The notes beneath the pieces are model-generated. The model did not search any database. It saw only the letters and a program-made list of their open reading frames with translations, and was not told where the DNA came from. The position numbers were made by a program, and so were the translations under genes. Shown piece by piece: positions 16,773-54,040 of a stretch of 57,232 nt of DNA; position 1 is the first letter of the stretch; each line of letters begins with the position of its first letter. The stretch is from Kiritimatiellia bacterium. GTDB taxonomy: Bacteria > Verrucomicrobiota > Kiritimatiellia > UBA8416 > JABMPJ01. The stretch is from the NCBI GenBank assembly GCA_029939545.1, contig JAOZSS010000003.1, positions 1 through 57,232 of the forward strand, written 5' to 3'.

Positions 16773-16774
16773 CG

Positions 16775-17450: not shown

Positions 17451-18132
17451 GCGATCTACTGTGGCTCTTGGAGGCAACGATTGCAAGCACAACCGATACC
17501 CGTCAGAGGTACGTGTCCTGCACCCTTATCGTGCAATGAAGGCTGAGGGTTGCAGCCTGGCGCGAGAATCGCCGGAATTCGGAAATCTGTCCTGGCAAAA
17601 GCTCAATTGCACGGGTACCCGTCCGGTGATAGGCTGCAAGCATACTTGAGGAGGGGAAGACCGGTTACACCCACCCCCTGGGATTTATGAAGAAGTGAAT
17701 TCTGAGGGAGGTGAAGCGGACGTGACGTCTTCGGTCTCCCCGTCCACACGCCTCCCGCCAAACGCGTTTCGAGTCTTCGATACCCGGCGTTTCACACCGG
17801 GCTATGACGGTCGACCCCTTTGGGGTCGTGATACACCACTGGTTCCAAGGAGCACTGCTGACTGTGGGGCTTTCCACATGTCGCTGCCTTCTGACCGCAA
17901 TCCCATGTCCGTAAACTGACCTTTGCGGACTCCTGATGGCAGATATCGCTGGCACGTATCTGCTGTGCTGCAGCAGACGACGAACGCGTATCTCCGTATC
18001 AGAACTGGCTCCACGGTCGTGACGTCGGAACCGTTTGAGGAAGATACAGAATTCTCTCTCCAAATGGCAGTGCGGTGTGGTATATCGGCAATGCGAAAGG
18101 TGTTCTATGGGAGACGGGGAAGAGCAGGGTTT

Positions 18133-19091
18133 ATGCAGCGACTGATCAAAGACGAATTGAATCTGATCCTTCAGGAGGGGGAGGGGCTCAAAATCGAGTT
18201 CAAGGAACGGCTTGCGGGTCTGGATCGAGAACTCGTGGCTTTTGCCAATGCATCCGGCGGACGGCTGTTTATGGGGGTTTCGGATCGGGGGAAGGTTGTT
18301 GGCATTGAGATCGACAATGCACTGCGCTCTCGTGTTCGGGATATTGCACGCAATTGTGAACCGTCCGTGGAGATTCAGCTTGAGGACGCGGGAGATGTGC
18401 TGGTGGTTCATGTCGACGAAGGGCGCGATAAGCCCTATCGGTGCTCCTCGGGTTTCTATACCCGCATGGGCCCCAATACACAGAAGCTTACACGCAGCCA
18501 GATTGTTGACTTCATTCACAGCGAGGGACTTGTCCGATGGGATCAGAAATGGCGTCCCGATCTCGATTTTGATGATGTGTTTGATCCGCGATTGCTGAGA
18601 AGCTTCCTGCGCAAGGCTCATATCACCACGGAGCTGAGCGATCTGGATGTGAGGCGGATATTGTCTCCAACATTGATGAGGCCATGCTCTTCCTGAAACG
18701 ACACTTGAGCGTTCGCTACGAGTTTGATGGCTCGCCGCAACGCAAAGAAATCCCCGAGTTGCCCCACAAAGCCCTGAGAAAAGCCGTGATCAACGCCATG
18801 ATCCATCGCGACTATGCCATGCAAGGCGCCACCACCATGGTTTCAGTCCTTGATGACCGTGTCGAAATCTTGCTTGAGGCTCTTGACCATGCAATGGGAC
18901 GAACGGAATTACAGTCCAGACTTGAATTGCAAAGTCAGGCCAATTTTCGAGATCGTTATTTAATGCCTGCGCTTGATGCTGGGTTGATCGAACGAACTAT
19001 CCCTGATAAACCGACCAGCCGCCTTCAGAAGTATCGGCTGACGCCCAAGGGCAGGCAGATTGTGCAGACAACAGCGGCGAAGAGAAGATGA
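18133..19091 (+). pseudogene. frameshifted and internally deleted AlbA_2 / HATPase_c_4 putative transcriptional regulator (RecG-like annotation family)
   Basis: The N-terminal AlbA_2-like part (EGEGLKIEFKE...LVAFANASGGRLFMGVSDRGKVVGI) ends in frame 1. The sequence continues in another frame from about 18650 (EADIVSNIDEAMLFLKRHL...ALRKAVINAMIHRDY). The HATPase_c_4 C-terminal half appears missing before the wHTH tail (PDKPTSRLQKYRLTPKG). Confidence 0.65.
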
Positions 19092-21787: not shown

Positions 21788-21792
21788 GAACG

Positions 21793-22836
21793 ATGAGACG
21801 ACGAGGACGGAGTAGATACAGTGACTACGGAGGCTGGCCCGCCTATGTGCCTGTGGCAGAGCGCCGCGCGAAGGCAAAGCGAGAGGTGGCAAAACTTCAA
21901 AAAAAGGGACAGGATATCCAGCCCGTGGAGATTGAAGGGCGCACCATTGCTCGCAGCTTTTGGGGCAAGGGGTGGTGTTCGCACCTCGAATCGTTTGGGG
22001 ACTACAGCAACCGCTTGCCGCGTGGACGAACCTATGTGCGCAACGGGTCGGTTTGTCACCTGGGTATTGAGAAGGGAAAAGTTGAAGCCATAGTTTCCGG
22101 GTCAGAGCTGTATCGCGTAAACGTCGATATCACGCCTCTGAAGAAAAGCAGGTGGAAGACCCTGAAGCAGAATTGTACGGGCAAGATAGGATCACTGATC
22201 GAGCTATTGCGGGGAAACCTGTCTGATGAAATCATGGGTACGGTTACGGACCCTGAGCAAGGGCTTTTCCCTTCTCCGCGCGAGATCCGGTATGTCTGCA
22301 ACTGTCCTGACTGGGCGGACATGTGCAAGCACATCTCCGCCGTCATGTACGGCATCGGCGCACGACTGGACACGCGGCCGGAATTGCTGTTTTTGCTTCG
22401 GGGTGTTGACCACCAGGAGTTGATCTCCGTCGATGCTGCGGTGGACGCGATTGCAGGCAGCGGATCACGTCGCGCGCGCCGTCGTTCCCTTTCCGGAAAA
22501 GATCTTGAGAATGTGTTTGGTGTGGAGTTGGAGGACAGTCCGACTGCAACGGCACCCTCGAAACCGAAGCGTAAATCGGCAAAGCGAAAAGCCGTTCCGA
22601 AGAAAGCAAAGAAGGCGTCCGCCAAGCCCCGTACGACCCGGCCCCGCAAGTCGGCCCCATTCAAGCCAACGGCCCGCTCAATAGCCAAGTTGCGTCGTCG
22701 GCATGGTATGAGCAAAGTCGAGTTTGCTCGGGCCGTTGGTGTGTCCTCCGTAACCATCGCCAACTGGGAGAAAGCCACCGGTGCCATCAATCTGCAGGCC
22801 AAGAGTCTCGCTGGGCTTATGAAGTTGGCCGGATGA
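21793..22836 (+). CDS. SWIM zinc-finger protein fused to a Lys/Pro-rich linker and a C-terminal XRE-type HTH
   Basis: CNCPDWADMCKHISAV (CxC...CxH SWIM). Linker KPKRKSAKRKAVPKKAKKASAKPRTTRPRK. Then LRRRHGMSKVEFARAVGVSSVTIANWEKATG. Confidence 0.8.
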   Translation: MRRRGRSRYSDYGGWPAYVPVAERRAKAKREVAKLQKKGQDIQPVEIEGRTIARSFWGKGWCSHLESFGDYSNRLPRGRTYVRNGSVCHLGIEKGKVEAIVSGSELYRVNVDITPLKKSRWKTLKQNCTGKIGSLIELLRGNLSDEIMGTVTDPEQGLFPSPREIRYVCNCPDWADMCKHISAVMYGIGARLDTRPELLFLLRGVDHQELISVDAAVDAIAGSGSRRARRRSLSGKDLENVFGVELEDSPTATAPSKPKRKSAKRKAVPKKAKKASAKPRTTRPRKSAPFKPTARSIAKLRRRHGMSKVEFARAVGVSSVTIANWEKATGAINLQAKSLAGLMKLAG

Positions 22837-37443: not shown

Positions 37444-39474
37444 TTATTCCTCGCTTTTTGCTTTCTCGGCCTCGGCAACGACCTTCTGGGCCACATTGGC
37501 CGGGACGACCTCGTAGCGGTTGTGTTCCATTTCGAACGAGCCCTGGCCGGCGGTCATGCTGCGAAGTTCGGCGGCGTAACGGAACAGCTCGGCTCGGGGA
37601 ACTTCGGCGGTCAGCACCTGCATGCCGTCATCGGCCTCCATGCCCATGATGCGTCCACGCTTGTGGTTCAGGTCGCCGTTGATGTCGCCCAAGGCGTGAT
37701 CCGGAATGGTGACCTTCACGGTCATGATCGGCTCAAGTAGTACGGGCTTGGCATTGGCCATGGCTTCACGCAGGGCGCGCGAACCGGCAATCTTGAACGC
37801 GACTTCCGAGGAGTCGACATCGTGATACGAGCCGTCGTAGAGCGTGACTTTGACCTTGGTGACCGGGTAACCTGCCACGGCACCGGCGGTCATGCCGTCG
37901 ATTATCCCCTTCTGCACGGCCGGGATGAAGTTGTGCGGAATAGCCCCACCCACGATTGCGTTGACGAAATCCTCCTCGTCCCCTTCGGGGAGCGGCTCGA
38001 CGCGCAGGTAGGCCTCGCCGTATTGGCCGCGTCCGCCGGACTGCTTCTTGTGCTTGTAGTGACCTTCGCCCAAGCCGGTGACCGTTTCCATGTAGGCCAC
38101 CTTGGGTGTGCTGAGCGTGACCGAGACGTTGCTGCGGCTCTTCATCATGCCTACGGCGACGTCGATGTGCACATCACCCAGACCCTGTAGTACGATTTCG
38201 TGGGTCTGTGCGTTGCGGTCGACATGCAGCGTGGGGTCTTCTTCGCAGACGCGCGTGAGGGCCAGCCCGATCTTGTCCTCGTCGGCTTGGGTCTGGGCCT
38301 CGACGGCTTGGAACATGACCGGCTTCGGGAAGCGAATCGGCGGCATGATGGTGGTAGCGCCCATGGCACAGAGTGTGTCGCCCACGTGTGTGTTCTTGAG
38401 TTTCGGAATGGCCACGATATCGCCAGGGGTAGCCTGTGTGACGGTTTCCTGCTTCTTGGCGTTGATACGCAGGAGGGTGCCGACGCGTTCCTTGTGGTCG
38501 CGGGTGGTGTTCTGTAGCTCGCAGTCGCCCTTTAGTGTGCCTCCCAGGACGCGCACAAAGTTGAGCTGGCCGACAAACGGATCGTTGACCGAACGCCAGA
38601 CGAAGCCGATGAACGGCGCATCCGCCGCAGTGCTGATGGCGGTGCCGTCTTGGTCCAGAATCTCGCGGTCGAGCGGCGAACGGAAGAGGCGGCAGATGCC
38701 ATCCAGCAGCTCGGTGACGCCAACGTCCTTGAGCGGCATGGTCACGAAGATGGGGCAGAGCCCGCCCGAGTCGACCGCGGCGTGCAGCCCTGCGGCGATT
38801 TCGTCAGGGGAGAGATCTTCACCACCGAGGAACTTCTCGATCAGCGTATCATCGGTCTCAGCGGCCAGTTCGACCAGTGCGCCCTTGGCTTCTTCAACTT
38901 CGGCGGCCATGTCATCGGCAACATCTTTTGAGGCGAGAATGTCGATCACTGCGGAGCGGTCGGTTGTGGGCAGAACCACCGGTACGCATCCGCTGCCGAA
39001 TGCGGACTGGATTTCCTTAATCACCTTGTCGTAGTCGGCGTTGTCACGGTCCAAGCCGGTAACAACGAACCCGCGGGCCAGTCCGGCGCGCTTGGCGTGC
39101 TTCCAGACCTGACGGGTGCCCACTTGAACACCGGAGACGGCGTCGACCGCGATCAGGGCTGTGCCCGTGGCGCGGCAGGCCGAGATGACCTGACCGAAGA
39201 AATCCATGTACCCCGGTGTGTCCACGAAGGTGAGGGCACGCTGCTTGCCGTTGGACGCTTTGTACGGCGCTTCGAACGGCTTGGCGAAGATCGTGATCTT
39301 GCGCCCTTTCTCCTCTTCGGTGAAGTCGGCCATGCTGGAACCTGCATCGACCAGACCCAGACGGTCATTCAGTCCCAGCTTGAACAATAGTGCATCCACA
39401 AGCGTTGTCTTGCCGCTTCCTGTGTGTCCCATAACAGAAAAAGCTCTGGTGTCCGCCACCGGAATGTTATCCAT
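37444..39474 (-). CDS. elongation factor G paralog
   Basis: The listed 885-aa ORF is over-extended. The true start is MDNIPVADTRAFSVMGHTGSGKTTLVDALL (G1 motif), then DTPGYMDF (G3) and EF-G domains II-V. 676 aa. Confidence 0.9.
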   Translation of the reverse strand: MDNIPVADTRAFSVMGHTGSGKTTLVDALLFKLGLNDRLGLVDAGSSMADFTEEEKGRKITIFAKPFEAPYKASNGKQRALTFVDTPGYMDFFGQVISACRATGTALIAVDAVSGVQVGTRQVWKHAKRAGLARGFVVTGLDRDNADYDKVIKEIQSAFGSGCVPVVLPTTDRSAVIDILASKDVADDMAAEVEEAKGALVELAAETDDTLIEKFLGGEDLSPDEIAAGLHAAVDSGGLCPIFVTMPLKDVGVTELLDGICRLFRSPLDREILDQDGTAISTAADAPFIGFVWRSVNDPFVGQLNFVRVLGGTLKGDCELQNTTRDHKERVGTLLRINAKKQETVTQATPGDIVAIPKLKNTHVGDTLCAMGATTIMPPIRFPKPVMFQAVEAQTQADEDKIGLALTRVCEEDPTLHVDRNAQTHEIVLQGLGDVHIDVAVGMMKSRSNVSVTLSTPKVAYMETVTGLGEGHYKHKKQSGGRGQYGEAYLRVEPLPEGDEEDFVNAIVGGAIPHNFIPAVQKGIIDGMTAGAVAGYPVTKVKVTLYDGSYHDVDSSEVAFKIAGSRALREAMANAKPVLLEPIMTVKVTIPDHALGDINGDLNHKRGRIMGMEADDGMQVLTAEVPRAELFRYAAELRSMTAGQGSFEMEHNRYEVVPANVAQKVVAEAEKAKSEE

Positions 39475-39678
39475 GATCCCGCCCCTGTTTCTAAGTGTTA
39501 AACGACGAAAAGCGCGGATTATGGCACGCGGAAACAAGTTTTGCAATAACCGACCTTGGTTCTGCGTTGTACATAGTATAGGGCATCCTTCGGATGCCGA
39601 AGCGGGTTGCGGGATACGGGATGCAAGGCTTTGTATTGTATGGGGGCTCAGCGGGTGTTTCGGTAGGATGGGCGAGTT

Positions 39679-41211
39679 ATGGAATTGAAGAGTCGACTCA
39701 TCTTTGGTCTCTGCGTTCTGGCCGCGATCCAGACGCTGTGTGCCAACGAGATTGATCGACTGGTGCTCCAGAAACTGAACGCGGATGGGCTTACCTGTGC
39801 GAAGCGCTGCAGTGATGCTGTCTTCGTCCGCCGCATCTACCTCGACATGATCGGAACGCTGCCGCGGATGTGGGAGGTCCGCACCTTCCTGGACAGCGAG
39901 AATCCCCGCAAGCGGGCCCAGTTGATCGAAAAGCTCTTCAAGCGCGATGAGTTTGCCGACTACTGGGCCATGAAGTGGTGTGACATCCTCAGAGTTAAGG
40001 CCGAGTTTCCCAGCAAGCTCTGGCCCAACGCGGTGCAGGCCTACCAGCGCTGGCTGACCGACGCGATCCGTGACAATAGGCCCTATGACCAGTTCGCTCA
40101 TGCGCTGCTGACCTCAACGGGCAGCAACTTCAGAGATCCCCCCGTCAATTTCTACCGCGCCATGCCCGAGCGTACGCCGGCCGCCACCGCCTCGACCGTG
40201 GCCCTGACCTTTATGGGACAGCGCACGGACGGGTGGCCGCAGGAGCGCCGGGACGGGATGACCGCCTTCTTTACGCGGGTAGGGTTCAAAGGCACCGCCG
40301 AGTGGAAGGAAGAGGTCGTCTTTTTCGATCTGCCCCGCGCCCTCGAAGAAGGCGCGCCCGAGGGGGCGGTGTTCCCGGATGGTACGGCGGTGGAGCTGGC
40401 CGCGGACCAGGATCCGCGCGCCGTGTTTGCCGACTGGCTGACCGCACCCGACAACCCTTATTTCGCGCGGAACATGGTCAATCGCATCTGGGCCTGGCTG
40501 ATCGGGCGCGGCCTTATCCATGAACCCGATGACATCCGCCCAGACAACCCGCCCTTGCACCCCGAACTCCTCGCCTGGCTCGAAAAAGAGCTCGTGACGC
40601 ATGACTACGACCTGCGCCAGATCTACCGGGTGATCCTCAATTCCGAGACCTACCAGCGCTCGTGCGTGCCGACCGAGGGCGCGGCCGATGACCCGTCCGG
40701 CTTCTCGCACTACCTCGTGCGTCGACTCGAGGCCGAGGTGCTCATCGATGCCATCAACCAGATCACCGGCGGGACGGAAGCGTATACGAGCGAGATCCCG
40801 GAGCCGTTCACCTTCATTCCGCGGCAGCACCGCGCCATTACACTCGGGGATGGCAGCATCACGAGTCCGTTTCTGGACATGTTCGGCCGTCCGCCACGCG
40901 ATACGGGGATGGAGTCGGAGCGGAACAACGAGCCGACCGACACGCAGCGGCTACACCTGCTCAATTCGACCCATATTCAGACGAAGATTCAGCGCGGCTG
41001 GGCATTGAAGGCGCTGGTCAAGAAGGCTAAGTGGCGGCCGGTTCCGGTGATCAACCAGCTCTATGTCACCATCCTGTCGCGCCATCCCGAGGATGATGAA
41101 CGACGGATCGCCCTGGCCTACAGGGAGTCGGGCGACGTGAAGCCGCATGAAGCGTATTGGGACCTGGCATGGGCACTGATAAATAGTAAGGAATTCCTGT
41201 ACAGACATTAG
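39679..41211 (+). CDS. DUF1549/DUF1553 (PSD1-like) domain protein
   Basis: Signal peptide. DUF1549-like FVRRIYLDMIGTLP and DYWAMKWCDILRV. C-terminal DUF1553-like ALINSKEFLYRH. Confidence 0.8.
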   Translation: MELKSRLIFGLCVLAAIQTLCANEIDRLVLQKLNADGLTCAKRCSDAVFVRRIYLDMIGTLPRMWEVRTFLDSENPRKRAQLIEKLFKRDEFADYWAMKWCDILRVKAEFPSKLWPNAVQAYQRWLTDAIRDNRPYDQFAHALLTSTGSNFRDPPVNFYRAMPERTPAATASTVALTFMGQRTDGWPQERRDGMTAFFTRVGFKGTAEWKEEVVFFDLPRALEEGAPEGAVFPDGTAVELAADQDPRAVFADWLTAPDNPYFARNMVNRIWAWLIGRGLIHEPDDIRPDNPPLHPELLAWLEKELVTHDYDLRQIYRVILNSETYQRSCVPTEGAADDPSGFSHYLVRRLEAEVLIDAINQITGGTEAYTSEIPEPFTFIPRQHRAITLGDGSITSPFLDMFGRPPRDTGMESERNNEPTDTQRLHLLNSTHIQTKIQRGWALKALVKKAKWRPVPVINQLYVTILSRHPEDDERRIALAYRESGDVKPHEAYWDLAWALINSKEFLYRH

Positions 41212-44776: not shown

Positions 44777-45846
44777 AACAACCCAAGATCAACCCCGACC
44801 TGGCCACGCTACAGCTCTCCTCGCACGTCGAGCACCATGTTTGCCTCCTTGCAGACGACGATGGGCAACTCCCGATCATCAATGGCCGTCTTCCCGCCGG
44901 GCATCACAAAGTGCACCAGTTTATCTTCGGCGGCTGTCATCACTATGAAACGTCGGAGCTGACCCAGGCTGGAAACGTTCCCACCACCTGGCTGCAGGGC
45001 GATGCCTGTCGTCGGGGCGAGATGCTCTCGATGCAGCTCCTCGCGATCAGCGGCGTCGACACATCGCCGGTCTATCTGGACGGCAAGCCGATCGGGGCCG
45101 TGTATGGCAACGAAGATGCGCGCTACTGCTACCTCGGCGGCATTATCCCCGCGGATCTCAAGGCGTCCCGCGAGGAGCAGGCGCGCTCCGTATTTGAGCG
45201 GATGCGCGAGGCGCTGGAGTCGTGCGGCATGAAGGCGACCGACATCGTGCGTACGTGGCTCTATCTCGACCGCTTGCTGGAGTGGTATGGCCCGTTCAAC
45301 ACCGTCCGCAGTACCTGGTTTCGTGAGCAGGGCATTTTCGATCACCTCGTCCCGGCCAGTACCGGCATCGGTGCAGCCAACCCGTTCGGCGCGGCACTCA
45401 CAGCCGGGCTAGTTGCCGTACAGCCCTTGTCGGATGCGGTCAGGATCGACCCTGTGGCCTCGCCGCTACAATGCCCGGCGCTCGACTATGCCAGCTCGTT
45501 CAGTCGGGCGGTCGAGATCGCGGTACACGATCACCGCACGCTCTACATCTCGGGAACCGCCAGCATCGATCCCGATGGCAACAGCGTTCATCTCGGCGAT
45601 GCCGGGCAACAGGTTAAGCTCACCATGGAGGTCGTCGCCGCGATCCTCGAATCACGCGGCATGAGCTGGAACGATGCCGTCCGCGGCATCGCCTACTTCA
45701 AGAACATCCTCCAGAACAAGCCGATCTACGACGCCTACTGCCGCGCCAACCACATTCCCGCCTTCCCCCTCGCCATCTCCCACGCCGACGTCTGCCGCGA
45801 TGACCTACTCTTCGAGATTGAGGTGGATGCGGTGGTTGTGGGATAG
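44773..45846 (+). CDS. RidA/YjgF-fold protein, resembling FkbO/Hyg5-type chorismatases
   Basis: 357 aa. IVRTWLYLDRL...YGPFN and LYISGTASIDPDGNSVHLGDAGQQVKLTMEVV resemble the chorismatase/RidA signature. Assignment by resemblance only. Confidence 0.45.
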   Translation: MKQPKINPDLATLQLSSHVEHHVCLLADDDGQLPIINGRLPAGHHKVHQFIFGGCHHYETSELTQAGNVPTTWLQGDACRRGEMLSMQLLAISGVDTSPVYLDGKPIGAVYGNEDARYCYLGGIIPADLKASREEQARSVFERMREALESCGMKATDIVRTWLYLDRLLEWYGPFNTVRSTWFREQGIFDHLVPASTGIGAANPFGAALTAGLVAVQPLSDAVRIDPVASPLQCPALDYASSFSRAVEIAVHDHRTLYISGTASIDPDGNSVHLGDAGQQVKLTMEVVAAILESRGMSWNDAVRGIAYFKNILQNKPIYDAYCRANHIPAFPLAISHADVCRDDLLFEIEVDAVVVG

Positions 45847-45851
45847 GGTGG

Positions 45852-46208
45852 TTATCTGCTCCCTGTCCATCTCTCCCAGTCCGGCACATAGATGGACATC
45901 AGACTCTTGAAGAGTTTGCCGTGGTTTTGGATACGCAGATGAAGCAGCTCGTGGACAATCGCGTAGCGCTGAAACGAACTGGTCTGCACGAGGAGATTCT
46001 CGCTGAAAGTCACCCACTTGCCGGGCGAACATGAAGCCCATTTGTTCCTCATCCTCTGCACGCGTATCTGGGCCGGCTCCACCTTCAGTGTCTTGGCCCA
46101 CTCGCGAACGCGGGCTTTGAAAGCAGCTTTCTCTTCTCTTGTCGGACCTGTCGGACAGGTCCGACTTGTCTGACGATTTTCCGCAGTGGTCCTCCTTGCC
46201 CGACTCAT
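45852..46208 (-). CDS. short DUF45/YgjP-like (M48-type HExxH) metallopeptidase, R-M associated
   Basis: RWASCS...AIVHELLHLRIQNHGKLF. ATGA overlap with the hsdR stop. The N-terminus contains repeat element a, read in a non-SD frame (RQTSRTCPTGPT). Confidence 0.65.
   Translation of the reverse strand: MSRARRTTAENRQTSRTCPTGPTREEKAAFKARVREWAKTLKVEPAQIRVQRMRNKWASCSPGKWVTFSENLLVQTSSFQRYAIVHELLHLRIQNHGKLFKSLMSIYVPDWERWTGSR
46141..46174. repeat. palindromic 9-mer tandem element, copy a
   Basis: GTCGGACCT GTCGGACAG GTCCGACTT GTCTGAC, inside the DUF45 gene N-terminus. Confidence 0.9.
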
Positions 46209-49165
46209 CCTGCCGCCCCCCGGAGAAGCTGTTCGGCAACCGCGATCATGCGTTCTTTACCCACGAGGGGCAGAAGAGCTTTGTACAGCTCTGCTTTGAG
46301 TTGGCGAAGCTCAGCAGCATTGTCGCGATGGTGGGCAAATCTGTCGAAGATCGCGCGGAGGATGAGTGCGGTTCTCTCCGGTTGGGACACTTCTGCCATT
46401 CTCAGTGTCCAGAAGAAGGAGAACGATGTCTCATCGAATCCCATCTCTTTTTGGAGTTGCTGAGCTTCAACGACTTCCTGAATCAACGCTTCGATCTTCT
46501 TTAGCGCCACCCCAGTTGTCTCTTGTCTGTCGTCATAGGCTTCCATAATCGCTTCCGCACGGTCGCCAATCGGCTTCAGGTAAGGCTTATGGTCCCCATC
46601 TTCAAGGACCGTCTTTCTGACACTGTTCACCAGGTTGATGACCCTCGTCTTGTCCGATCCGCTGCTCTCCTTGATGGCATCCAGAGTTGTCTCGTCGATC
46701 CTGACCGCAGAAAGCGTGGTATCGAGACCGTAGCTTTCGGCTTTTTCACGAACAAGCATTTCAGTCTTCGTCGCCACCTCGCCGTACATGACTGTCTTCC
46801 TGCGGAAGGCGTTGCGGACGATCTGGCAGAGGAGCGAGAGGCACCCGAAATCGTCTACGAAGTCCCTTAAGTATGGGGAAGGGGAGAGGATCTCATAGAG
46901 CATTTCAAGATGCTTGTAGAGCGAATAGAACGTCTCACGTTTGTCTGGGTCAGACAGAGCGCCTATTGCCCTTTCAACAGCTTTGTCATCAACGGGTCCT
47001 TCGCAGAGATCCGTGTATTCTTGCGCGGGTCCCGTCATGAGCTGTCTGAATTCAGAAAAGAGCAGATCCAGATCCTCGATAACGTCACTCACCACCTCTG
47101 AATCAAATGCGAGCGCCTTCTCCAGCTTCTCGAAGATGCCGACGAAGTCGACGACGAGACCGCAGGGCTTCCGGCTCTCCGCATCCCGCTCATATGGGCG
47201 GTTCACGCGTGCTATCGCCTGCAGGAGCACATGGTCACGCATGGGTTTGTCGAGATACATGCAGTACAGGACGGGTGCATCGAATCCGGTCAGAAGTTTG
47301 TCTGTTACGATGAAGATCTTTGGCTGTGTCCCCGGCTTTTGGAATAGCTTCCGGGCTTTCTTCTCTTCGTCAGCGCTGATCTGGTGGTGATGCACAAGCG
47401 GATATTTCTCGCTGTCGTGCTGTGCCGACGTGTAGATCGGCGTGGCGTACTCGGGAGGCAGGAGCTTGTCCAGTGCCTCCTTGTACAGCGCACATGCTTC
47501 ACGATCAACGGCCACAAGGAACGCCTTGTAGCCAAGTGGCTCCACGTTCTTCGTGTAGTGCTCTGCGACGAAGGCCGCGACCTTCTCGACACGATCGTCG
47601 GTCTTGAGGAACGTCTTGAGGCGCATCGCGTGGTCGAGAATCTTGTTGAGCTCATCAACATCGCTCACGCCTTCAGCTTCCGCGAGGGCCAGGAACTCCT
47701 CTTCAAGCTGTTCGCGCGGAACTCGAATCTCGCTCGGAGCCAACGTGTACTTCAATGGCACTGTTGTGCCGTCTGCTATCGATTCCGCGATTGAGTATTT
47801 ATCGAGATAGCCTTGTTCATCTTCTTTGCCGAATGTCTTGAACGTACCTTTGCCATAAGCCGTCTGGTCAATGGGGGTGCCGGTGAAACCGATGAGGGTT
47901 GCATTCGACAGTGCGCCCAGAAGGTAGTTGCCCAGATCGCCGCCTGTGGTGCGGTGTGCTTCATCGACAAGCACAAAGATATTCTCGCGCGTGTTGATGT
48001 CCTTGGGAATGCCGTCGAACTTGTGGATCATGGAGACGATCAGTCCGCGGAAGTCTGAGCTGAGCAGGGAGCGCAGCTTTCGTTTGCTGGTCGCGTGCTC
48101 GATGCTGATCGCATGCGAAGATAGCTCCCCAAGGATGCGCTCCACCCACCCGGCAAGCTGCCCCTCCAACTCGTTGCGGTCGATCATCAGGATGACAGTG
48201 GGTTTGCCTTCTCCTTTTTCGTCAGACTTGTCGGACAGGTCTGACGTGTCCGACAGGGCAAAGCTGGAGCCTTGAGTCAGCAGCAGTCGGGCGGCGGTAA
48301 TCATCGTGAACGTTTTGCCCGAGCCTTGCGTGTGCCAGACTAGACCTCGCGCCTTTCCTGTGTCAGCACAGCGTTGCAAAATACGTTCAACGGCCCGCGT
48401 TTGGTGTTGCCGGAGAACAGTCTTCTGAAGCTCATCTTCCTTGTAGAAGAATAGGATCCAATCCTTAAGCATGGTCAGGAAGCGTTCGCGGTTGAAGAAA
48501 GCTTTCACCTTCTCCTCGTAGTTTCCCGGTTCTTCGGTATTCCAGTTGAACAGGTTCTTTCGGTCCAGGTTCCAGGTCGCGCCGTAGTAGAAGTCGATCA
48601 GGTGTGTGATGTCAAAGACCTGGGGGACTGTAAGCATCTCGGGGGTCTCGTGGTGATACTCCCGGATCTGGATCAGCCCTTCCTCGATGCCCTTTGCCTT
48701 GGCTGCGTTCTTCGTCTCGACGATGGCAACAGGTATGCCATTGATCAGGAACATCACATCCGCGCGATTCGTCTCCTGCCCATTCGTGTACAGCCACTCA
48801 TCCGTGACATGGAAGGTGTTGCGCCCATGCGGAGAGAAATCGATGACCGTTACATTCCTCTCCCGCTTTTCGTCCGGGTCGTAAACGCTTTGCTCGCCGC
48901 GCAGCCAGCCCAGAATCTCCGCATTTCCCTCGATCGTGTTGCGAACCGTCTCGATTCGCCGGACCACTTCCCTGGCGCTGTCCGCTGTGAGCAGTCCGAG
49001 GTTCAGCTCAAGCAACTTCTCCTCAAGAACCCGGCCAAAGAGCATCCCCCCTTCGCCCTTCCGGAGCACGACGGCTTCCGAAGAGGATATGTAAGTCCAG
49101 CCTGCGTTGATTGCATAGTCGATCAGTGGGGCTTGGACGGCGGTATTCTCGTTCGGTTTGGTCAT
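46205..49165 (-). CDS. hsdR: type I restriction enzyme R subunit
   Basis: 986 aa. N-terminal nuclease-like domain, HTQGSGKT (motif I), VLVDEAHRT (DEAH), helicase C domain, C-terminal HsdR tail. Confidence 0.95.
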   Translation of the reverse strand: MTKPNENTAVQAPLIDYAINAGWTYISSSEAVVLRKGEGGMLFGRVLEEKLLELNLGLLTADSAREVVRRIETVRNTIEGNAEILGWLRGEQSVYDPDEKRERNVTVIDFSPHGRNTFHVTDEWLYTNGQETNRADVMFLINGIPVAIVETKNAAKAKGIEEGLIQIREYHHETPEMLTVPQVFDITHLIDFYYGATWNLDRKNLFNWNTEEPGNYEEKVKAFFNRERFLTMLKDWILFFYKEDELQKTVLRQHQTRAVERILQRCADTGKARGLVWHTQGSGKTFTMITAARLLLTQGSSFALSDTSDLSDKSDEKGEGKPTVILMIDRNELEGQLAGWVERILGELSSHAISIEHATSKRKLRSLLSSDFRGLIVSMIHKFDGIPKDINTRENIFVLVDEAHRTTGGDLGNYLLGALSNATLIGFTGTPIDQTAYGKGTFKTFGKEDEQGYLDKYSIAESIADGTTVPLKYTLAPSEIRVPREQLEEEFLALAEAEGVSDVDELNKILDHAMRLKTFLKTDDRVEKVAAFVAEHYTKNVEPLGYKAFLVAVDREACALYKEALDKLLPPEYATPIYTSAQHDSEKYPLVHHHQISADEEKKARKLFQKPGTQPKIFIVTDKLLTGFDAPVLYCMYLDKPMRDHVLLQAIARVNRPYERDAESRKPCGLVVDFVGIFEKLEKALAFDSEVVSDVIEDLDLLFSEFRQLMTGPAQEYTDLCEGPVDDKAVERAIGALSDPDKRETFYSLYKHLEMLYEILSPSPYLRDFVDDFGCLSLLCQIVRNAFRRKTVMYGEVATKTEMLVREKAESYGLDTTLSAVRIDETTLDAIKESSGSDKTRVINLVNSVRKTVLEDGDHKPYLKPIGDRAEAIMEAYDDRQETTGVALKKIEALIQEVVEAQQLQKEMGFDETSFSFFWTLRMAEVSQPERTALILRAIFDRFAHHRDNAAELRQLKAELYKALLPLVGKERMIAVAEQLLRGAAG
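48221..48254. repeat. palindromic 9-mer tandem element, copy b
   Basis: GTCAGACTT GTCGGACAG GTCTGACGT GTCCGAC. Encodes LSDTSDLSDKSDEKGEGK inside HsdR. Confidence 0.9.
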
Positions 49166-49983
49166 TGCTGCCGTCTCCGCTGGGTGCGAGTGCGGTAGAG
49201 GCGCTCGGTGAAGCCTCCTTCTTCCACAAAGTCACGTTCCAGTTTCGTGATCTGGCGTTTCAGCAGGTAGATGGCTTGGTTCGTCAGGCAGATGAGGGTG
49301 TTGGCGGCCACCTCCAGCGTGGCATCCGCAATACCGTAGGGGTCGAGTTTCTCCCTCTCGTCGGACTTGTCGGACTTGTCCGACACGTCCGACAGAGCAA
49401 ACCACTCCCGCGGGAAACTCCGGTATCGTTTGCGCACGGCCAAGGCTTCTGGATCGTTCTTTTTCCACTGGCGCAGGCGGCGGTGTCGCAGGATGTCTTC
49501 ATAGTCGAGCAGAAGTTCCTCAAGACTGGCCTTGGCCACGTTGGTGAGTTTGAGCTCGGTCTTCTTGGAGGTGGCAGAGGCCATGCTGCCTTCTGCAATG
49601 TTCTGTCGTCCGCTACGTGCCGCCTGGACCATCTGGTCGTGCGTGCGTGAGCGCCTGTTCACAAATCGGTCACAGAAGATCACCGTGCCGTCATAGACAA
49701 TCTCAGAAACCTGGAACCCTTTCAGGTTGCGGTAGCCGCCGTGTGTGGGGATGAGGCCGGGGCTTTTCTCTCTCTTCTTTCCCTTCCCGTCGGACCTGGC
49801 GGACAAGTCCGACCCGTCCGACAAGAGAGTGCATGCTCCCCGTACATCCTCAACAATTCGGTTCAGCAGTTCGCGAACCGCATCCGGTTGCGCTGGTACA
49901 CCGGCGGGGCATGTGTCTTTCGAGAGCTTCGCGATCCAGTCGAGCTTCTGGAGCGCTTCGGAGATTAGTTTGTTCGTGCTCAT
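49162..49983 (-). CDS. four-helix-bundle protein (23S rRNA IVS / TIGR02436-like with suffix domain) with N-terminal extension
   Basis: QMVQAARSGRQNIAEGS...LTNVAKASLEELLLDYEDIL. 4-nt overlaps with hsdS and hsdR. Carries two SD-repeat elements. Confidence 0.7.
   Translation of the reverse strand: MSTNKLISEALQKLDWIAKLSKDTCPAGVPAQPDAVRELLNRIVEDVRGACTLLSDGSDLSARSDGKGKKREKSPGLIPTHGGYRNLKGFQVSEIVYDGTVIFCDRFVNRRSRTHDQMVQAARSGRQNIAEGSMASATSKKTELKLTNVAKASLEELLLDYEDILRHRRLRQWKKNDPEALAVRKRYRSFPREWFALSDVSDKSDKSDEREKLDPYGIADATLEVAANTLICLTNQAIYLLKRQITKLERDFVEEGGFTERLYRTRTQRRRQQ
49360..49393. repeat. palindromic 9-mer tandem element, copy c
   Basis: GTCGGACTT GTCGGACTT GTCCGACAC GTCCGAC. Encodes LSDVSDKSDKSDEREK in the four-helix-bundle protein. 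Confidence 0.9.
49789..49822. repeat. palindromic 9-mer tandem element, copy d
   Basis: GTCGGACCT GGCGGACAA GTCCGACCC GTCCGAC. Encodes LSDGSDLSARSDGKGKKREK in the four-helix-bundle protein. Confidence 0.9.
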
Positions 49984-51254
49984 GCCCGCCCCTCCATAGT
50001 CCCCACATCAACAGCCAGATTCTCAGCGCGGATGTCGCCGGTCATTAGTCTGTTGAGTGTTGTCTTGAAGAGGGCTTGAAGGGCGGCTTTCTTGGATTCG
50101 TGATGTTCCAATGTGGCTGCGATGGCTGCGAGATGTTCAGTAATCCTATCTTGTTCTGTTAGGCTGGGCAGAGGAATGAGGATACTGTTAATGGTTTTCG
50201 TATTAATGTTGAACTTTCCATCAGATGCGGGGGTTGCGCGTCCCGAGAGCTGGGCTCTGCCCTGCTCTGCCTCAGTGTAAAGCTGCAGAAAGCCTGGGCG
50301 CATTTGATCCTGATTGAGCCGGGCGCGGATCAGATAGGAGGCAAACATCGCGTGCGTGGGCGAATCTCGATAGACGGCGGTGCGACCCACATAACGTTTC
50401 TGTCCATTTGTTCGGACAAACAAGACGTCGCCGCCTCTCAGTTCAAATCGATCATGTTCGACTGCTGAAACGTCTGCGTACTTGATCTCAGTCGTATCGA
50501 TCTTTCCTCCGATGACATTGGGTATCCGAAGCACGGCCACACCTTTCGGCGTGAGTGTGCATCGTCTAGATGTTCCGTACTGCAAGAACTCGCGCACCTC
50601 TGACACGGGCACCACATCCCAACTCTCCGGAATCTCCCCAATCTCGGTCATCTTGGTCTTCTCGCCGCGGAGGCCGTGGGTGAAGAGGTGTTGCATGGTG
50701 GATTTTTTGAGGGCGCGGAGGGATTGGATGATCTTGTCCTGTGTCTCAATTGCCTGCTGGATTCTCAGTAAGACGGCAGCGATCTTCTTCTGCTCGGGGA
50801 GGGGGGGAAGGGAGATCGCTTGCTTGAATATGTCCTTGTCTCTGACTGCCGGGTAACTGGCGCCGTGCTGGGCATCTGCGATTGACGCGCTCACTGTGTC
50901 TGATAGCAGGGAAAAGTACAGGTATTCCGGGACAGCCTTCTCTCTGTTCGCCCTGACAACACAGAACGCCGTTGAAACGATATGATTGTCATACTCTGGA
51001 GGCACCAATGCAATACGTTTGAGCGTGGGGCGTATCGTCGCGTAGATGACATCATGTGCATGCACGATCTTGCGTGCTCTACCCGGGGCTGTTTCTCCTG
51101 CGATAGCTTGAGGCGACACGATGGAATATGTGTCGTTCGAGACTGAGGAGACGTCAATGTAGAAGAACCCGTCACGATGTTCTTTTCTCGGTTTCCATTG
51201 TGCTGTCTTCAGGCAGACATCTTGCAGCGCTGTATCTTTCCACCCCGCCTTCAT
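49980..51254 (-). CDS. hsdS: type I restriction enzyme S (specificity) subunit
   Basis: 424 aa. Two TRD halves, each followed by a conserved helix (LPPLPEQKKIAAVL; LPSLTEQDRITEHL). Confidence 0.9.
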   Translation of the reverse strand: MKAGWKDTALQDVCLKTAQWKPRKEHRDGFFYIDVSSVSNDTYSIVSPQAIAGETAPGRARKIVHAHDVIYATIRPTLKRIALVPPEYDNHIVSTAFCVVRANREKAVPEYLYFSLLSDTVSASIADAQHGASYPAVRDKDIFKQAISLPPLPEQKKIAAVLLRIQQAIETQDKIIQSLRALKKSTMQHLFTHGLRGEKTKMTEIGEIPESWDVVPVSEVREFLQYGTSRRCTLTPKGVAVLRIPNVIGGKIDTTEIKYADVSAVEHDRFELRGGDVLFVRTNGQKRYVGRTAVYRDSPTHAMFASYLIRARLNQDQMRPGFLQLYTEAEQGRAQLSGRATPASDGKFNINTKTINSILIPLPSLTEQDRITEHLAAIAATLEHHESKKAALQALFKTTLNRLMTGDIRAENLAVDVGTMEGRA

Positions 51255-53161
51255 TCAACACCTCCCGCGTTGGACTTGTCGGACGGGTCTGGCTTGTCCG
51301 ACATCTCCCCGCCAAACCCCATCTGCGCAAAGATCTTCTTCAGATCCCCGTCAATCTTCTTGGCCTGTGTCTCCAGGCCATCTTTTCCCCACAGCTCTTC
51401 GAGCACCTCCGGTATGGGGCGGTACTCCTCCTGCTCACTGGTGTCGACGTAGCGGGAGGGGGATAGGTTGTAGTCGTTCTCGGCCGCTTTGTCGTTGGTG
51501 ATGACTTGGGTAAAGCACTCGACGGGCTTTCCCTTGATGAAGGCCTGGGCGATTCTCTTGATGCTGTCTTCGGGGATGTAGTTTTTCGGGCGGCCTTTCT
51601 TGAATTCCTGGCTGGCGTTGACGAGGACGATTTGGCCTTGCCGCTGCGGCAGCTTGTTCCTGTTGAGCAGGACGATGATGCCGGCAGCCGTCGTGTTGTA
51701 GAAGAGGTTGTCGGGCAAAAGAATGACGCCTTCGACCAGGTCGTGATCGACAAACCACTTGCGGATGGTCTTCTCCTTGTCTTCGTTGCGACTCCCACTC
51801 CCGCGCGTTACGGCACCGGTGTCGAGGACGACGGCTGCCCGACCCGTGTTCGTGAGTGTGGTCAGCGTGTGCTGGAGCCATGCCCAGTCGGCCTTGCTGG
51901 ACGTGATGCCGCCGTGCTCGTCAAAACGGCCAAAGTCGTCCTTGTCGTAGATGGATGCATCAAATGGCTGGTTCCACATGGGGTTGGCCACGACAATATC
52001 AAAGGTCCGGAGTTTGCCGTCAGGCGTACGGAATTTCGGGTTGGTCATTGAGTTCCCGCGGACAATTTCGCCCTCCATGTCGTGGATGACCATGTTCATG
52101 CGCCCGATTGCGTAGCTGGCGCCGGTCAGCTCCTGCCCATAGAGCTTGAGTGGTTTGCTGACTTTCAGCTCGCGTTCCATCAGTGCGAGTTCGCACTTGA
52201 TCAGGAGTCCCGCCGATCCGCAGGCGTAGTCGTGTACCTCTTCGCCCTGGGCGGGGCGAACCATGTAAGCCATCAGCCAGCCGACTTCTGTCGGGGTGAA
52301 GAACTCCCCGGCGCTCTGGCCCTGACCTTCGGCAAACTTGCGGAGCAGATACTCGTAGCAGCGGCCGAGGAAGTCGGGTTCGACGTCATACAGGCCAAGG
52401 CGATAGCGGGGGGCGGATAGAGCTTCGATGATACCGGCCAGGGCGGAATCGCTGATCTCCCTCTCGCCATTACGGGTCTCGTTGAAGTCGACAATATCTA
52501 TAACGCCGCTGAGATCCTTTCTGCGGTCACCGGCGTTTGCTTTCACGATGGTGCGCATAGTGGTCGTGAGCTGCTCGCCCAGAGACTTTGGCTTCTGCCC
52601 GTTGGACCAGTCGAAAGCCTCGCGTCCGCTGACAATCGCCCAACGTGCCTGCGGGGGAATATAGAAGCGGACCAATCCCGGATCCGCTTCTATAATAGAG
52701 AGAGCCGTCTCGTGGTCGCCGTAGGTTTCGGAAAGCCGTTCTATTTCGTCATCGAAGACGTCGGAGAGGCGTTTAATGAAGACAAGAGGGAGAATGTAGT
52801 CCTTGAACTTCGGGGCATCCTTCTCGCCTCGGATGGAGCAGGCGGCCGACCAGAGCATCTGTTCCATGGACTTGGTAGTAAGCAGGTCGCGACGCGATGC
52901 ACGCTTGCGGCTTCTGCTGGTTGAGGGTGATCCGCCGGACGTGTTGTCGGACAGGTCTGACATGTCCGACTCTGTCAACTCCACCTCAGAAAGCAACTCG
53001 GCGATGGCCTTCTTTGCCTTACCACGCGGCGTGCTCCGTTGGTTCTCCCAGCGGTTTAGCGTCGAAAAGGCGACCCCCAGTCTCGCGGCCAACTCTTCCT
53101 GGCTCATATCAAGCTTGGCCCTTAATAGCTTGAGAATCTCTGGGATTTCTCTATCATCCAT
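51251..53161 (-). CDS. hsdM: type I restriction enzyme M subunit (N6-adenine methyltransferase) with N-terminal XRE-type HTH
   Basis: LRAKLDMSQEELAARLGVAFSTLNRWENQRSTP (HTH). HsdM N-domain. Motif I DYACGSAGLL. Motif IV VVANPMWN. Confidence 0.9.
   Translation of the reverse strand: MDDREIPEILKLLRAKLDMSQEELAARLGVAFSTLNRWENQRSTPRGKAKKAIAELLSEVELTESDMSDLSDNTSGGSPSTSRSRKRASRRDLLTTKSMEQMLWSAACSIRGEKDAPKFKDYILPLVFIKRLSDVFDDEIERLSETYGDHETALSIIEADPGLVRFYIPPQARWAIVSGREAFDWSNGQKPKSLGEQLTTTMRTIVKANAGDRRKDLSGVIDIVDFNETRNGEREISDSALAGIIEALSAPRYRLGLYDVEPDFLGRCYEYLLRKFAEGQGQSAGEFFTPTEVGWLMAYMVRPAQGEEVHDYACGSAGLLIKCELALMERELKVSKPLKLYGQELTGASYAIGRMNMVIHDMEGEIVRGNSMTNPKFRTPDGKLRTFDIVVANPMWNQPFDASIYDKDDFGRFDEHGGITSSKADWAWLQHTLTTLTNTGRAAVVLDTGAVTRGSGSRNEDKEKTIRKWFVDHDLVEGVILLPDNLFYNTTAAGIIVLLNRNKLPQRQGQIVLVNASQEFKKGRPKNYIPEDSIKRIAQAFIKGKPVECFTQVITNDKAAENDYNLSPSRYVDTSEQEEYRPIPEVLEELWGKDGLETQAKKIDGDLKKIFAQMGFGGEMSDKPDPSDKSNAGGVE
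51269..51302. repeat. palindromic 9-mer tandem element, copy e
   Basis: GTTGGACTT GTCGGACGG GTCTGGCTT GTCCGAC. Encodes MSDKPDPSDKSNAGGVE at the extreme C-terminus of HsdM. Confidence 0.85.
52946..52970. repeat. palindromic 9-mer tandem element, copy f (3 units)
   Basis: GTCGGACAG GTCTGACAT GTCCGAC. Encodes ESDMSDLSDNTSGG in the linker between the HTH and the methyltransferase body of HsdM. Confidence 0.85.
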
Positions 53162-53182
53162 AGTGTAGTCCTCTGTTTGACG

Positions 53183-53216
53183 AGCTATATAATGCTATAG
53201 CGTTTATAGCGATATC
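53183..53216. promoter_or_regulatory. AT-rich palindrome/direct-repeat cluster upstream of hsdM; candidate operator and promoter
   Basis: AGCTATATAATGCTATAGCGTTTATAGCGATATC contains the palindrome GCTATAGC and TATAGCG twice. It lies 22-55 nt upstream of the hsdM ATG and is the only strongly AT-rich patch nearby. Confidence 0.35.
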
Positions 53217-53284
53217 AAGGGGTTTCTTGGGGCAATTGGGTGATACGATTTGACAGGCTTGGTCATTTCCATCAGAAAGACGGC

Positions 53285-54040
53285 ATGATGCGTGAGATTG
53301 TTGAGAAGATCGGGCTGATCATTGTTGGGGATGAGATTCTCAACGGTCGGCGTCAGGATAAGCATTTCCGCTGTACGCTGGAGCTGTGCCGGGAGTGGAA
53401 TGCCCGGCTGGCCTTTACACTGGTGCTGCCCGACGATATGGACGTCATGGTGACGCATTTCAAGTGGGCCATGGCACAGCCCCATCCTTTCTTCTCCTGT
53501 GGTGGGATCGGGTCGACCCCCGACGACGTGACGCGTCAGGCTGCGGCGGCGGCCGCCGGGGTGGGGCTTGAGCAGCATGCCGAGGCGGTTCGGATTCTGA
53601 AGGAGCGCTTTGGCGATGAGGCGACGGAGCCGCGCCTGCGGATGGTGACGTTTCCCGTCGGTTGCGCGCTGGTGCCCAATCCGGTCAACCAGGTGCCCGG
53701 CTTCGGCATTGCCAACGGCTATTTTCTCCCCGGCTTTCCCTCCATGGCGGCACCGATGATGCGGTGGATACTGGAGACCTACTATGAACCCGGCGCGGAG
53801 CAGGTGCGCTTCACGATGGCACTGCCCAACGCGCGTGAAGCGGACCTGACCGATCTGATGGAAACGTTCGTGGCCGACTACTCGGACCTTACGTTTTCGA
53901 GTCTGCCCCAACACACGGATGCCGGTCCGCGCGTGATCCTGAGCATCAGCGGGCTTCCCGAGATCGCCGAGGGTGCCTATACCGATCTCAAACGGCGGCT
54001 GAGCAAGGTCGCAGTGACGTTCGAAGAGAACGCATCATGA
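53285..54040 (+). CDS. CinA-N-terminal-like / molybdopterin-binding (MoCF_biosynth) domain protein
   Basis: IGLIIVGDEILNGRRQDKH ... FSCGGIGSTPDDVT. Start moved to MMREIVEKIG. Confidence 0.7.
   Translation: MMREIVEKIGLIIVGDEILNGRRQDKHFRCTLELCREWNARLAFTLVLPDDMDVMVTHFKWAMAQPHPFFSCGGIGSTPDDVTRQAAAAAAGVGLEQHAEAVRILKERFGDEATEPRLRMVTFPVGCALVPNPVNQVPGFGIANGYFLPGFPSMAAPMMRWILETYYEPGAEQVRFTMALPNAREADLTDLMETFVADYSDLTFSSLPQHTDAGPRVILSISGLPEIAEGAYTDLKRRLSKVAVTFEENAS

Follow-up and report, generated by a model that had tools for sequence, protein, structure and literature searches.

Palindromic repeats that lie in frame inside functional genes have been described before in bacteria. The Rickettsia palindromic elements (RPEs), as cited in PMC3733652, were found in frame inside functional open reading frames (ORFs), where they are tolerated as an extra peptide. 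The same paper describes the GTAG- and CGTC-tagged repetitive extragenic palindromic sequences (REPs) as palindromes of 20-40 bp, some of which lie wholly within ORFs, including replication and repair genes. The palindromic amphipathic repeat coding elements (PARCELs) were reported as intragenic tandem coding repeats with DNA dyad symmetry, punctate across distant taxa and mobilome-associated, followed by a proposal of horizontal transfer and of shuffling within genomes. In the present analysis, a stretch of 57,232 nt of contig JAOZSS010000003.1 from a Kiritimatiellia bacterium (GCA_029939545.1), referred to here as the window, was found to contain a tandem repeat, (GTCNGAC-NN)n, with a 9-nt unit in which each unit is palindromic, inside the genes of a type I restriction-modification (RM) operon. 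The element was found to be like the RPEs, the in-ORF REPs and the PARCELs in that palindromic DNA survives in frame, but it was found to lack the defining features of each. No published description was found in the searchable full-text literature for the DNA motif, the peptide, the family name or the repeat terms.

The copies in HsdR, HsdM and the YgjP-like protein were found to resemble RPEs in being in-frame insertions relative to orthologs. The RPEs, however, are ~100-150 bp long, have no 9-nt periodicity, are dispersed genome-wide and are found only in Rickettsia, whereas the present element is 25-45 nt long (~54 nt with flanks in the window), tandem, clustered at one gene family and present in the Planctomycetes-Verrucomicrobia-Chlamydiae (PVC) superphylum, Bacteroidota and other phyla. 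Membership of the RPEs was rejected, as in-frame insertion was found but neither a single long hairpin of their size, a whole-array hairpin not being general, nor any copy in the other 50 kb of the window. The PARCEL unit contains 25 residues (75 nt), is amphipathic and builds up long tracts in proteins of the membrane or the surface, whereas the unit described here contains 3 residues (9 nt), is acidic and disordered, and occurs in runs of 3-5 units within cytoplasmic proteins related to DNA, where it occupies linkers; the two kinds were found to share no more than dyad symmetry of the DNA and a tandem coding arrangement. Membership of the REPs or REPINs was rejected, as the six copies contained no GTAG or CGTC tag, were all intragenic and internally tandem, and were accompanied by no REP-associated tyrosine transposase (RAYT) in the window. 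The miniature inverted-repeat transposable elements (MITEs) were also rejected as a class, as no target-site duplication was found and the flanks were complementary at chance level only.

Three further kinds of repeat were compared. The CNG-type hairpin microsatellites and minisatellites, in which self-complementary units stabilise slipped intermediates and intact pairing expands, served as a working analogy, whereas in the present element three of the nine positions are free and the arrays are short and stable in clusters of >90% identity. Tandem operator arrays of palindromic units of 7-9 bp are known from the metboxes of MetJ and the heptads of the omega repressor, and the parS sites inside parB/spo0J genes are palindromes kept in coding sequence for protein binding; these also served as a working analogy, from which the present arrays differ in that they were also found in unrelated housekeeping genes. 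The collagen-like (Gly-Pro-Thr)n repeats of phage tail-fibre-like proteins were found to contain the same DNA pattern, GGTCCGACN, but in another frame, with a fixed centre C, an NG spacer and protein-level Gly-X-Y selection, and they represent an unrelated phenomenon. A 9-bp target duplication of an insertion sequence, adenine mutagenesis of the diversity-generating retroelement type, a restriction or methylation site and Shine-Dalgarno-like tails were set aside for want of support.

The two-unit search pattern GTCNGACNNGTCNGAC was matched 12 times in the window, all inside 46141-52970, and was not matched in any of 100 dinucleotide-preserving shuffles. A mismatch-tolerant scan recovered the same six arrays and nothing further in the 57 kb, the remaining 50 kb containing no array against six in ~7 kb. 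The element is real and was confirmed where the sequence-only reading, an earlier inspection of the letters of the window, had placed it, that is, as six tandem copies absent elsewhere in the window and all lying inside ORFs, which were found on the minus strand of one operon (Table 1). Translation also confirmed that five of the six arrays read as (Ser-Asp-x)n, abbreviated SDx, whereas the copy in the YgjP-like gene was found to use another frame (TSRTCPTGPT). A shared purine-rich flank coding for a Gly/Lys/Glu-rich stretch had been claimed after five copies; a purine-rich tail coding for Glu, Lys, Gly and Arg was found after four of the six. The larger inserted unit that had been suspected was recovered within the window lineage as a unit of ~51-54 nt, containing a CT-rich left flank followed by the array and a GA-rich right flank. 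These flanks were found in the clade of the window, L209 and L123 (L numbers denote compared loci or operons and P numbers compared proteins), and were rejected as a universal part of the element, as they were not conserved across arrays outside this close clade.

The RNA folds of 57-66 nt around each window copy were found to have z values of -5.9, -3.8, -2.9, -2.4, -2.1 and -1.1 against shuffles, the strongest fold being that of array 4HB-2 (-37.9 kcal/mol, z -5.9). The claim that every copy forms a hairpin was borne out only in part: several copies fold better than their shuffles, and three of the six do so only marginally. The Rfam 15 covariance models gave no match over 45500-53500 at E up to 1.

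The repeat was shown to be a nucleic-acid entity that is conserved at the DNA level. In the codon test the arrays were ascertained from protein sequence only, and 82 homologous genes gave 33 arrays with 134 units. The Ser codons of the arrays were TCN in 134 of 134 cases, whereas 38% of the Ser codons elsewhere in the same genes were AGY. The Asp codon was GAC in 83% of cases within the arrays against 51% elsewhere in the same genes, followed by the presence of G at the third base of the x codon in 92% of units against 32% elsewhere, whereas the first two bases of the x codon varied freely. The silent positions are fixed and the first two bases of the x codon are free, which is the reverse of what selection on the protein gives, and the codon choices reconstitute the 7-mer palindrome GTCNGAC. 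When all 64 palindromic cores were tested at period 9 in 590 kb of protein-selected loci, GTCNGAC alone was found to be enriched, with 36 arrays against at most one for the other cores. In three operons the YgjP-like gene retained the motif, read there outside the SD frame. The SD frame was found in six of seven independent sites (P ~0.007 against one third, by a binomial estimate), and a TA spacer, which would place a TAG stop on either strand, was nearly absent. The fixed silent positions, the non-SD frame and the copies in non-coding DNA together uphold the earlier proposal of a discrete DNA element beyond an acidic linker. Other short motifs that stay constant at silent codon positions in unrelated genes of different phyla have usually proved to be either selfish DNA with a new survival route in coding sequence or functional cis sites such as parS and the uptake sequences.

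The usual home of the repeat was shown to be the four-helix-bundle-suffix gene (TIGR04258) that lies between hsdS and hsdR. More than 8000 homologs of the bundle protein were returned by the search, and its match to PF05635 scored 22.8 bits, under the gathering score of 33.8. The AlphaFold2 model had a predicted local distance difference test score (pLDDT) of 87, and its best fold matches were 2GSC (TM-target 0.80) and 2RLD, both S23/four-helix-bundle proteins and the nearest solved folds. No sequence relative of the bundle protein was found in PDB, no match in PADLOC and no match in the phage collection. Both arrays of the protein were found to form low-confidence loops in the model (residues 58-71 with pLDDT <50, and block 201-210 with a mean pLDDT of 63), in agreement with the earlier suggestion that the arrays sit in tolerated linkers. 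The SDx arrays, of 0-8 units, were found at the same two linkers in homologs of several phyla, with the 4HB-1 site filled in most homologs; the array-bearing homologs were attributed to Verrucomicrobiota, Planctomycetota, Kiritimatiellia, Thermodesulfobacteriota, Nitrospirota and Methylomirabilis.

A metagenome sample of 80 loci (474 kb), chosen solely by the bundle protein and not by the repeat, was found to contain arrays in 26 loci, nearly all in or beside the bundle gene, and the DNA surrounding the gene was essentially array-free. Among the 34 loci with a length of 5 kb or more, eight were found within type I RM operons. For the large TIGR04258 family the repeat offers an initial concrete clue, and about a quarter of the longer loci examined lie in such operons. 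Array-free TIGR04258 genes were common, including the annotated one of Prevotella nigrescens, and in most of the RM-linked TIGR04258 loci the arrays were confined to that gene.

The optional modules of the family were found to be an N-domain, the bundle, helix 4 plus suffix and a Topo-type Zn ribbon, and the module boundaries bearing arrays were the 5′ flank, the N-domain/bundle junction, the loop between helix 3 and helix 4, the bundle/Zn-ribbon junction and the 3′ flank. Arrays in non-coding DNA by the bundle gene were found 15-85 nt upstream of its start or abutting its stop (L123, L135, L136 and L160), and in L136 and L160 they were found on both sides of the gene. Some members contained the C-terminal Topo-type Zn ribbon PF01396 (Zn_ribbon_Top1, E 3.5e-09), often joined via an SDx array (Table 1), and L132 (131-1945) contained a RecQ helicase core followed by the bundle-suffix region in one open frame. 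A distant subclade (L150, L163, L184, L188, L193 and L198) was found to contain the variant repeat TCSGATCNG, at both sites where two were occupied; in this variant the Asp codon is GAT and the next codon begins with C, by which GATC is created.

In HsdR, ~112 of the best 120 orthologs (63-99% identity) were found to be without the insert and to read '...ARLILQ-DRDTF-GKATVILMIDR'. Among these 120, the 17-residue SDx insert was found only in the window, in its near-identical relative P0121 and in a small subclade that comprises P0122, P0123, P0125, P0134 and, in decayed form, P0161. The hsdR genes bearing the insert contained a TIGR04258 gene directly upstream in six of six cases, and the L210 operon, whose HsdR is 82% identical and which has no four-helix-bundle gene, contained no array at all. 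The YgjP-like protein of L210 was without the 18-residue N-terminal segment that carries the array in the window, and the YgjP array was kept in L209 and L333, again in the non-SD frame. The short form of the YgjP-like protein (103-129 aa) was common to all related operons (L209, L210 and L332-L335) and is thus ancestral; the array is therefore not the cause of the truncation. The HsdM-N array was missing from L209, an 82%-related operon, and is therefore an insertion specific to the window lineage. At the C terminus of HsdM, a degenerate array was found at the same place in L209 and an unrelated segment of similar length in the array-free L210; the sequence beyond the window array matched neither relative when compared as the endpoint of a deletion removing the DUF1016/RhuM genes. 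No target-site duplication was found in DNA alignments of filled against empty sites. These ortholog alignments showed the arrays to be insertions in HsdR, in the YgjP-like gene and in the N-terminal linker of HsdM, as the sequence-only reading had proposed, and to lie at shared family sites in the bundle gene. For the bundle gene the insertion reading is not supported, as SD stretches were found at the same two sites in several phyla, a pattern that the earlier inspection had itself taken to speak for ancestral linkers.

The unit number of the arrays had a mode of 4. Adjacent units were found to share the centre base at a frequency of 0.54 against 0.29 expected, and the spacer at 0.32 against 0.08, a signature of slippage or duplication. 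The members of clusters with >90% identity mostly contained an equal unit number, with occasional changes of one unit. A hypervariable variable-number tandem repeat was ruled out by this stability, and a phase-variable repeat in RM genes was rejected, as the 9-nt unit keeps the frame and the unit number is mostly constant among close members. The similarity at the free positions in six related operons was 0.489 for orthologous sites, 0.495 for sites of the same operon and 0.489 for unrelated pairs; the free positions are therefore saturated. The arms were found to be intact in most lineages, and decay was found at all sites together in L334 and L335. In L335 (2441-2824), the segment of the bundle gene that runs from array 1 to array 2 was found to be deleted exactly and in frame, with loss of the bundle core and a product of 127 aa, followed by the presence of one hybrid array at 2602-2626. 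The arrays therefore recombine with each other, and their proposed role as recombination substrates is supported by this deletion. The repeat in this way shows how proteins gain linkers, in-frame deletions and domain fusions.

Beyond the operon, at least 120 stretches were matched in the genome scan, made with one genome per species, and at least 120 in the viral contig scan. When the taxa of the listed genome stretches were counted from the record titles, ~42 belonged to the PVC superphylum, 25 to Bacteroidota and 16 to Actinomycetota, and the rest were scattered; the Actinomycetota stretches contained mostly other GC-rich repeats. The host ORFs among the matches listed were found to code for valyl-tRNA synthetase (ValRS), MutL, a polyketide synthase linker, the N-termini of ThiC and RlmN, and the DUF1549 family. 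Arrays were also found in intergenic DNA, and several metagenome-assembled genomes (MAGs) contained multiple copies per genome. The presence of arrays in housekeeping proteins and intergenic DNA shows that the element is not defence-specific. Its confinement to a defence locus, as claimed earlier, thus holds within the window but fails elsewhere, given the copies in ValRS, MutL, polyketide synthase, DUF1549 proteins, intergenic DNA and viral contigs. The DUF1549/PSCyt2-family proteins of five Verrucomicrobia (L014, L015, L018, L057 and L060) contained an SDx array at one position, before '...LL.SP.YGERW', which points to an old insertion common to the five or else to a preferred site. Most of the listed viral matches were the collagen-like (Gly-Pro-Thr)n repeats in long phage ORFs (for example in L215, L220, L229 and L260), and a phage origin was rejected on this ground and on the want of a match to the bundle protein in the phage collection. 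For annotation, the repeat opens long frames on both strands, and its DNA pattern is also matched by collagen-like Gly-Pro-Thr repeats; gene prediction and the search for repeats in genomes of PVC bacteria and Bacteroidota can be misled by it.

Some of the distant matches were found to be embedded in larger structures. In L070 (636-1660), and also in L008 and L029 (Lentisphaerae MAG SIG83), larger tandem units were found 172-345 bp apart, each containing a flanked (GTCTGAC-NN)4-5, and the flanks of these larger units were conserved. The intergenic arrays of L093 (1709-1900) and L047 (1525-1610) were directly followed by (TGAACCY)n heptamers, and L093 also contained a repeat of the GATTTCGAT type; some PVC genomes thus stack several short tandem-repeat families in one spacer. 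In Prevotella ihumii, an 8-unit array (L091, 2720-2835) was found within a 23-nt inverted repeat, aacccaaatctgtcgttagccca / tgggctaacgacagatttgggtt, and a second locus (L023, 1060-1130) contained a left flank in common with it; to judge from the sequence, the two loci resemble a more extended family of palindromic repeats that includes the array.

The reading favoured here, at a probability of about 0.45, is that the repeat is a coding minisatellite that is prone to form structures, propagates itself and is tolerated as a disordered acidic linker. The repeat usually resides in the TIGR04258 gene, where it marks module boundaries, and in the window lineage it was also installed in hsdR, in hsdM at two places and at the N-terminus of the YgjP-like protein, as in-frame additions of ~50 nt. 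Units with intact self-complementary arms may form slipped or hairpin intermediates, which would favour the duplication of such units or their transfer to positions nearby through template switching. Molecular drive of this kind would keep the arms without any service to the restriction enzyme; the GTC/GAC arms are held, the three free positions per unit drift to saturation, and the arrays grow and shrink by slippage and can recombine with one another. Read on either strand, the repeat encodes a disordered acidic (Ser-Asp-x)n linker in one of its three frames, which is why copies survive inside genes; the side effects would be added linkers and joints at which protein modules can recombine in frame.

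The insertions, the constraint on the DNA, the association with the TIGR04258 gene, the slippage signature and one deletion between arrays are results of the analysis, whereas the hairpin-assisted drive and the copying route are steps that we infer. Several results weigh against the minisatellite reading. Recent copying between sites of one operon was rejected, as the site classes were indistinguishable at their free positions, and the closest likeness, that of array 4HB-1 of the window to the YgjP array of L209 (10 of 11 free positions alike), was within chance for 253 pairs. Over 67 four-unit arrays, complementarity of unit centres was 35 observed against 35 expected and that of spacers 18 against 33. 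With centres at chance and spacer complementarity depleted, the whole-array hairpin was rejected as a general or defining feature, and here the earlier hairpin claim is not supported; complementarity of the flanks across arrays was also at chance. The conservation of the arms while silent sites are saturated is what purifying selection for function would give, and the joint decay in L334 and L335 hints at a lineage-level trans factor or at relaxed selection. No target-site duplication, transposase or other machinery was found in the alignments or in the window ORF scan, and the status of a mobile element in the MITE or RPE sense is therefore not supported. Among the matches listed, a TIGR04258 gene was found in 4 of 120 genome stretches and in 0 of 120 viral stretches; most genome and viral arrays thus contained no such gene within the stretch, and a constant place beside the bundle-suffix gene was rejected. 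As the arrays are mostly confined to the TIGR04258 gene in the RM-linked loci, spread to neighbouring genes is unusual. The silent-site conservation, the non-coding copies and the correlated decay are, moreover, explained more naturally by cis-acting sites than by a minisatellite.

The main rival, which is considered rather unlikely, holds that the arrays are candidate cis-acting DNA or mRNA sites bound cooperatively, most plausibly by the Avd-like bundle-suffix protein. The in-gene sites would then be needed in cis for autoregulation, operon control, marking or processing, and would be placed in linkers where the SD reading is harmless. Such sites would account for arms that stay constant at silent positions with the free positions saturated, for the persistence of the motif in the YgjP-like gene outside the SD frame, for the non-coding arrays 15-85 nt upstream of the bundle-gene start or abutting its stop, and for the clustering at the TIGR04258 gene, within or beside which nearly all of the 36 arrays in the 590 kb of protein-selected loci were found. 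The variant TCSGATCNG at both sites of one protein subclade, the members fused to Zn_ribbon_Top1 (E 3.5e-09) or RecQ, and the joint decay of the arrays in L334 and in L335 (the latter with the bundle core lost) also speak for it, and a palindromic unit without whole-array symmetry would fit a tandem operator layout of the MetJ or omega kind. The bundle protein, however, was without a PDB sequence relative or a PADLOC match, most genome and viral arrays among the matches listed lay in stretches without a TIGR04258 gene, many TIGR04258 genes, including that of Prevotella nigrescens, were array-free, and the arrays in the ValRS, MutL and polyketide synthase linkers are hard to explain as operators. 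A bolder proposal, which is doubtful and distinctly unlikely, is that the arrays and the Avd-like bundle-suffix protein form one system, in which (GTCNGAC-NN)n, as DNA or as RNA, would be recognised by the protein and its frame-neutral copies inside genes would serve as the sites of action. If this were true, the sites would control the genes that carry them or promote in-frame exchange, deletion and fusion of the modules they delimit, and the whole would amount to a protein-guided, codon-compatible system of cassette shuffling or marking on defence operons, with its sites written into linkers.

Three other explanations are weaker still. An RNA element, in which the arrays would pair in the operon transcript for RNase III-type processing, stability or ribosome pausing at module boundaries, would suit the several copies that fold better than shuffles (z to -5.9), the arrays found upstream as well as downstream of the gene in L136 and L160, and the complementarity of first and last units in 15 of 33 arrays by hand count against an estimated ~9. 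The 23S rRNA intervening sequences, which encode the founding members of the bundle protein family, as the name of PF05635 indicates, would add a family link to intervening-sequence ORFs, with their stems as an analogy. The want of an Rfam match, the absence of general covariation of the centres, the depleted spacer complementarity, the flank complementarity at chance and the three of six window copies that are only marginally better than shuffles make this very unlikely. A classical mini-element of the MITE, REP or RPE kind, moved in trans by a transposase, with random insertion filtered by selection, is similarly improbable: the insertions relative to orthologs, the many phyla and viral contigs, the multiple copies per genome in several MAGs and the common ~54-nt CT/GA-flanked unit of the window lineage would agree with it, but the alignments of filled and empty sites gave no target-site duplication, the window contained no GTAG/CGTC tag, transposase or RAYT, conservation of the flanks was limited to the close clade, the 50 kb of chromosome around the operon contained no copy against six in 7 kb, and a variable unit number with internal tandem structure would be atypical. 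Selection of the peptide itself, as a (Ser-Asp-x)n acidic flexible linker or a phospho- or metal-binding tract whose DNA regularity is a footprint of slippage, is the least probable explanation. The SD frame at six of seven independent sites, the position of the arrays at domain boundaries and in disordered loops, their retention at two linkers across the bundle family and the slippage signature speak for it; however, codon choice was fixed where protein selection is blind (no AGY Ser, GAC over GAT, G at 92% of x third bases), the motif was kept in non-coding flanks and, within the YgjP-like gene, in an RT-type frame, the same 9-mer was found in unrelated proteins and phyla, and other period-9 palindromic cores were not enriched. 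Pure protein-level selection is largely excluded by the codon test.

Table 1. Arrays and genes of the operon in the window, and Zn-ribbon members of the bundle family in compared loci
Feature	Position	Strand	Description
Array HsdM-N	52934..52970	-	3 perfect units (52946-52970) and a displaced degenerate fourth, GTCCGGC; reads ESDMSDLSDNTSG; between HTH_3 and HsdM_N
Array HsdM-C	51269..51302	-	4 units, 2 perfect, decayed; reads EMSDKPDPSDKSN; C-terminal tail of HsdM, stop 5 codons later
Array 4HB-1	49789..49822	-	4 units, 3 perfect; reads LSDGSDLSARSD; linker between N-terminal domain and helical bundle
Array 4HB-2	49360..49393	-	4 perfect units, centres G,G,C,C; reads LSDVSDKSDKSD; loop between short helices after bundle helix 3 (140-167) and helix 4 (223-255)
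Array HsdR	48221..48254	-	4 perfect units; reads LSDTSDLSDKSD then EKGEGK; 3′ of the Walker-A helix of the SF2 ATPase
Array YgjP-N	46141..46174	-	4 perfect units, non-SD frame; reads QTSRTCPTGPT; residues 12-23 of the short YgjP-like protein
hsdM with N-terminal HTH_3	51251..53161	-	Pfam N6_Mtase (E 1.2e-84), HsdM_N, HTH_3; PADLOC MTase_I; two arrays
hsdS	49980..51254	-	Pfam Methylase_S, two stretches; PADLOC Specificity_I; no array
Four-helix-bundle-suffix gene, 273 aa	49162..49983	-	TIGR04258 (E 2.4e-22, 78.6 bits, cut-off 40); TIGR02436 (27.1 bits, cut-off 24); two arrays
hsdR	46205..49165	-	TIGR00348 (E 2.7e-128); Pfam HSDR_N, SWI2_SNF2, T1R_D3-like; PADLOC REase_I; one array
Short YgjP-like (DUF45) gene	45852..46208	-	PF01863, profile positions 110-200 of 207 (C-terminal half); one array
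Zn-ribbon members of the bundle family	L140 4462-5190; L160 6929-7684		Also L022, L034, L143, L148

The operon is a type I RM operon, as hsdR, hsdM and hsdS were found together, and its G+C content was 0.54-0.58 against ~0.60-0.63 in the surroundings. The genes between hsdM, hsdS and hsdR were found to differ among close relatives, the window version being the most compact; the extra genes in the relatives were DUF1016/YhcG, RhuM, DUF6398 and a KAP NTPase (L209 2940-5197 and 6426-7185; L210 1263-3433 and 4710-7982; L334 23-3316). A Pfam scan of 28 ORFs of the window revealed no transposase, RAYT or reverse transcriptase. Elsewhere the window contained housekeeping genes, including those for Mfd, sigma-54, LpxB, carbamoyltransferases, IMPDH and EF-G. 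A SNF2 helicase with DUF3670, followed by a 347-aa protein with a C-terminal HTH_3, was found at 19088-22836, and the adjacent 3 kb (16000-19000) had a G+C content of 0.52-0.56; this region may be a second accessory or defence-like island. The EF-G-like ORF at 37444-40101 (885 aa) was found to contain its GTPase domain from residue 218, with either an unusually long N-terminal extension or a mis-set start.

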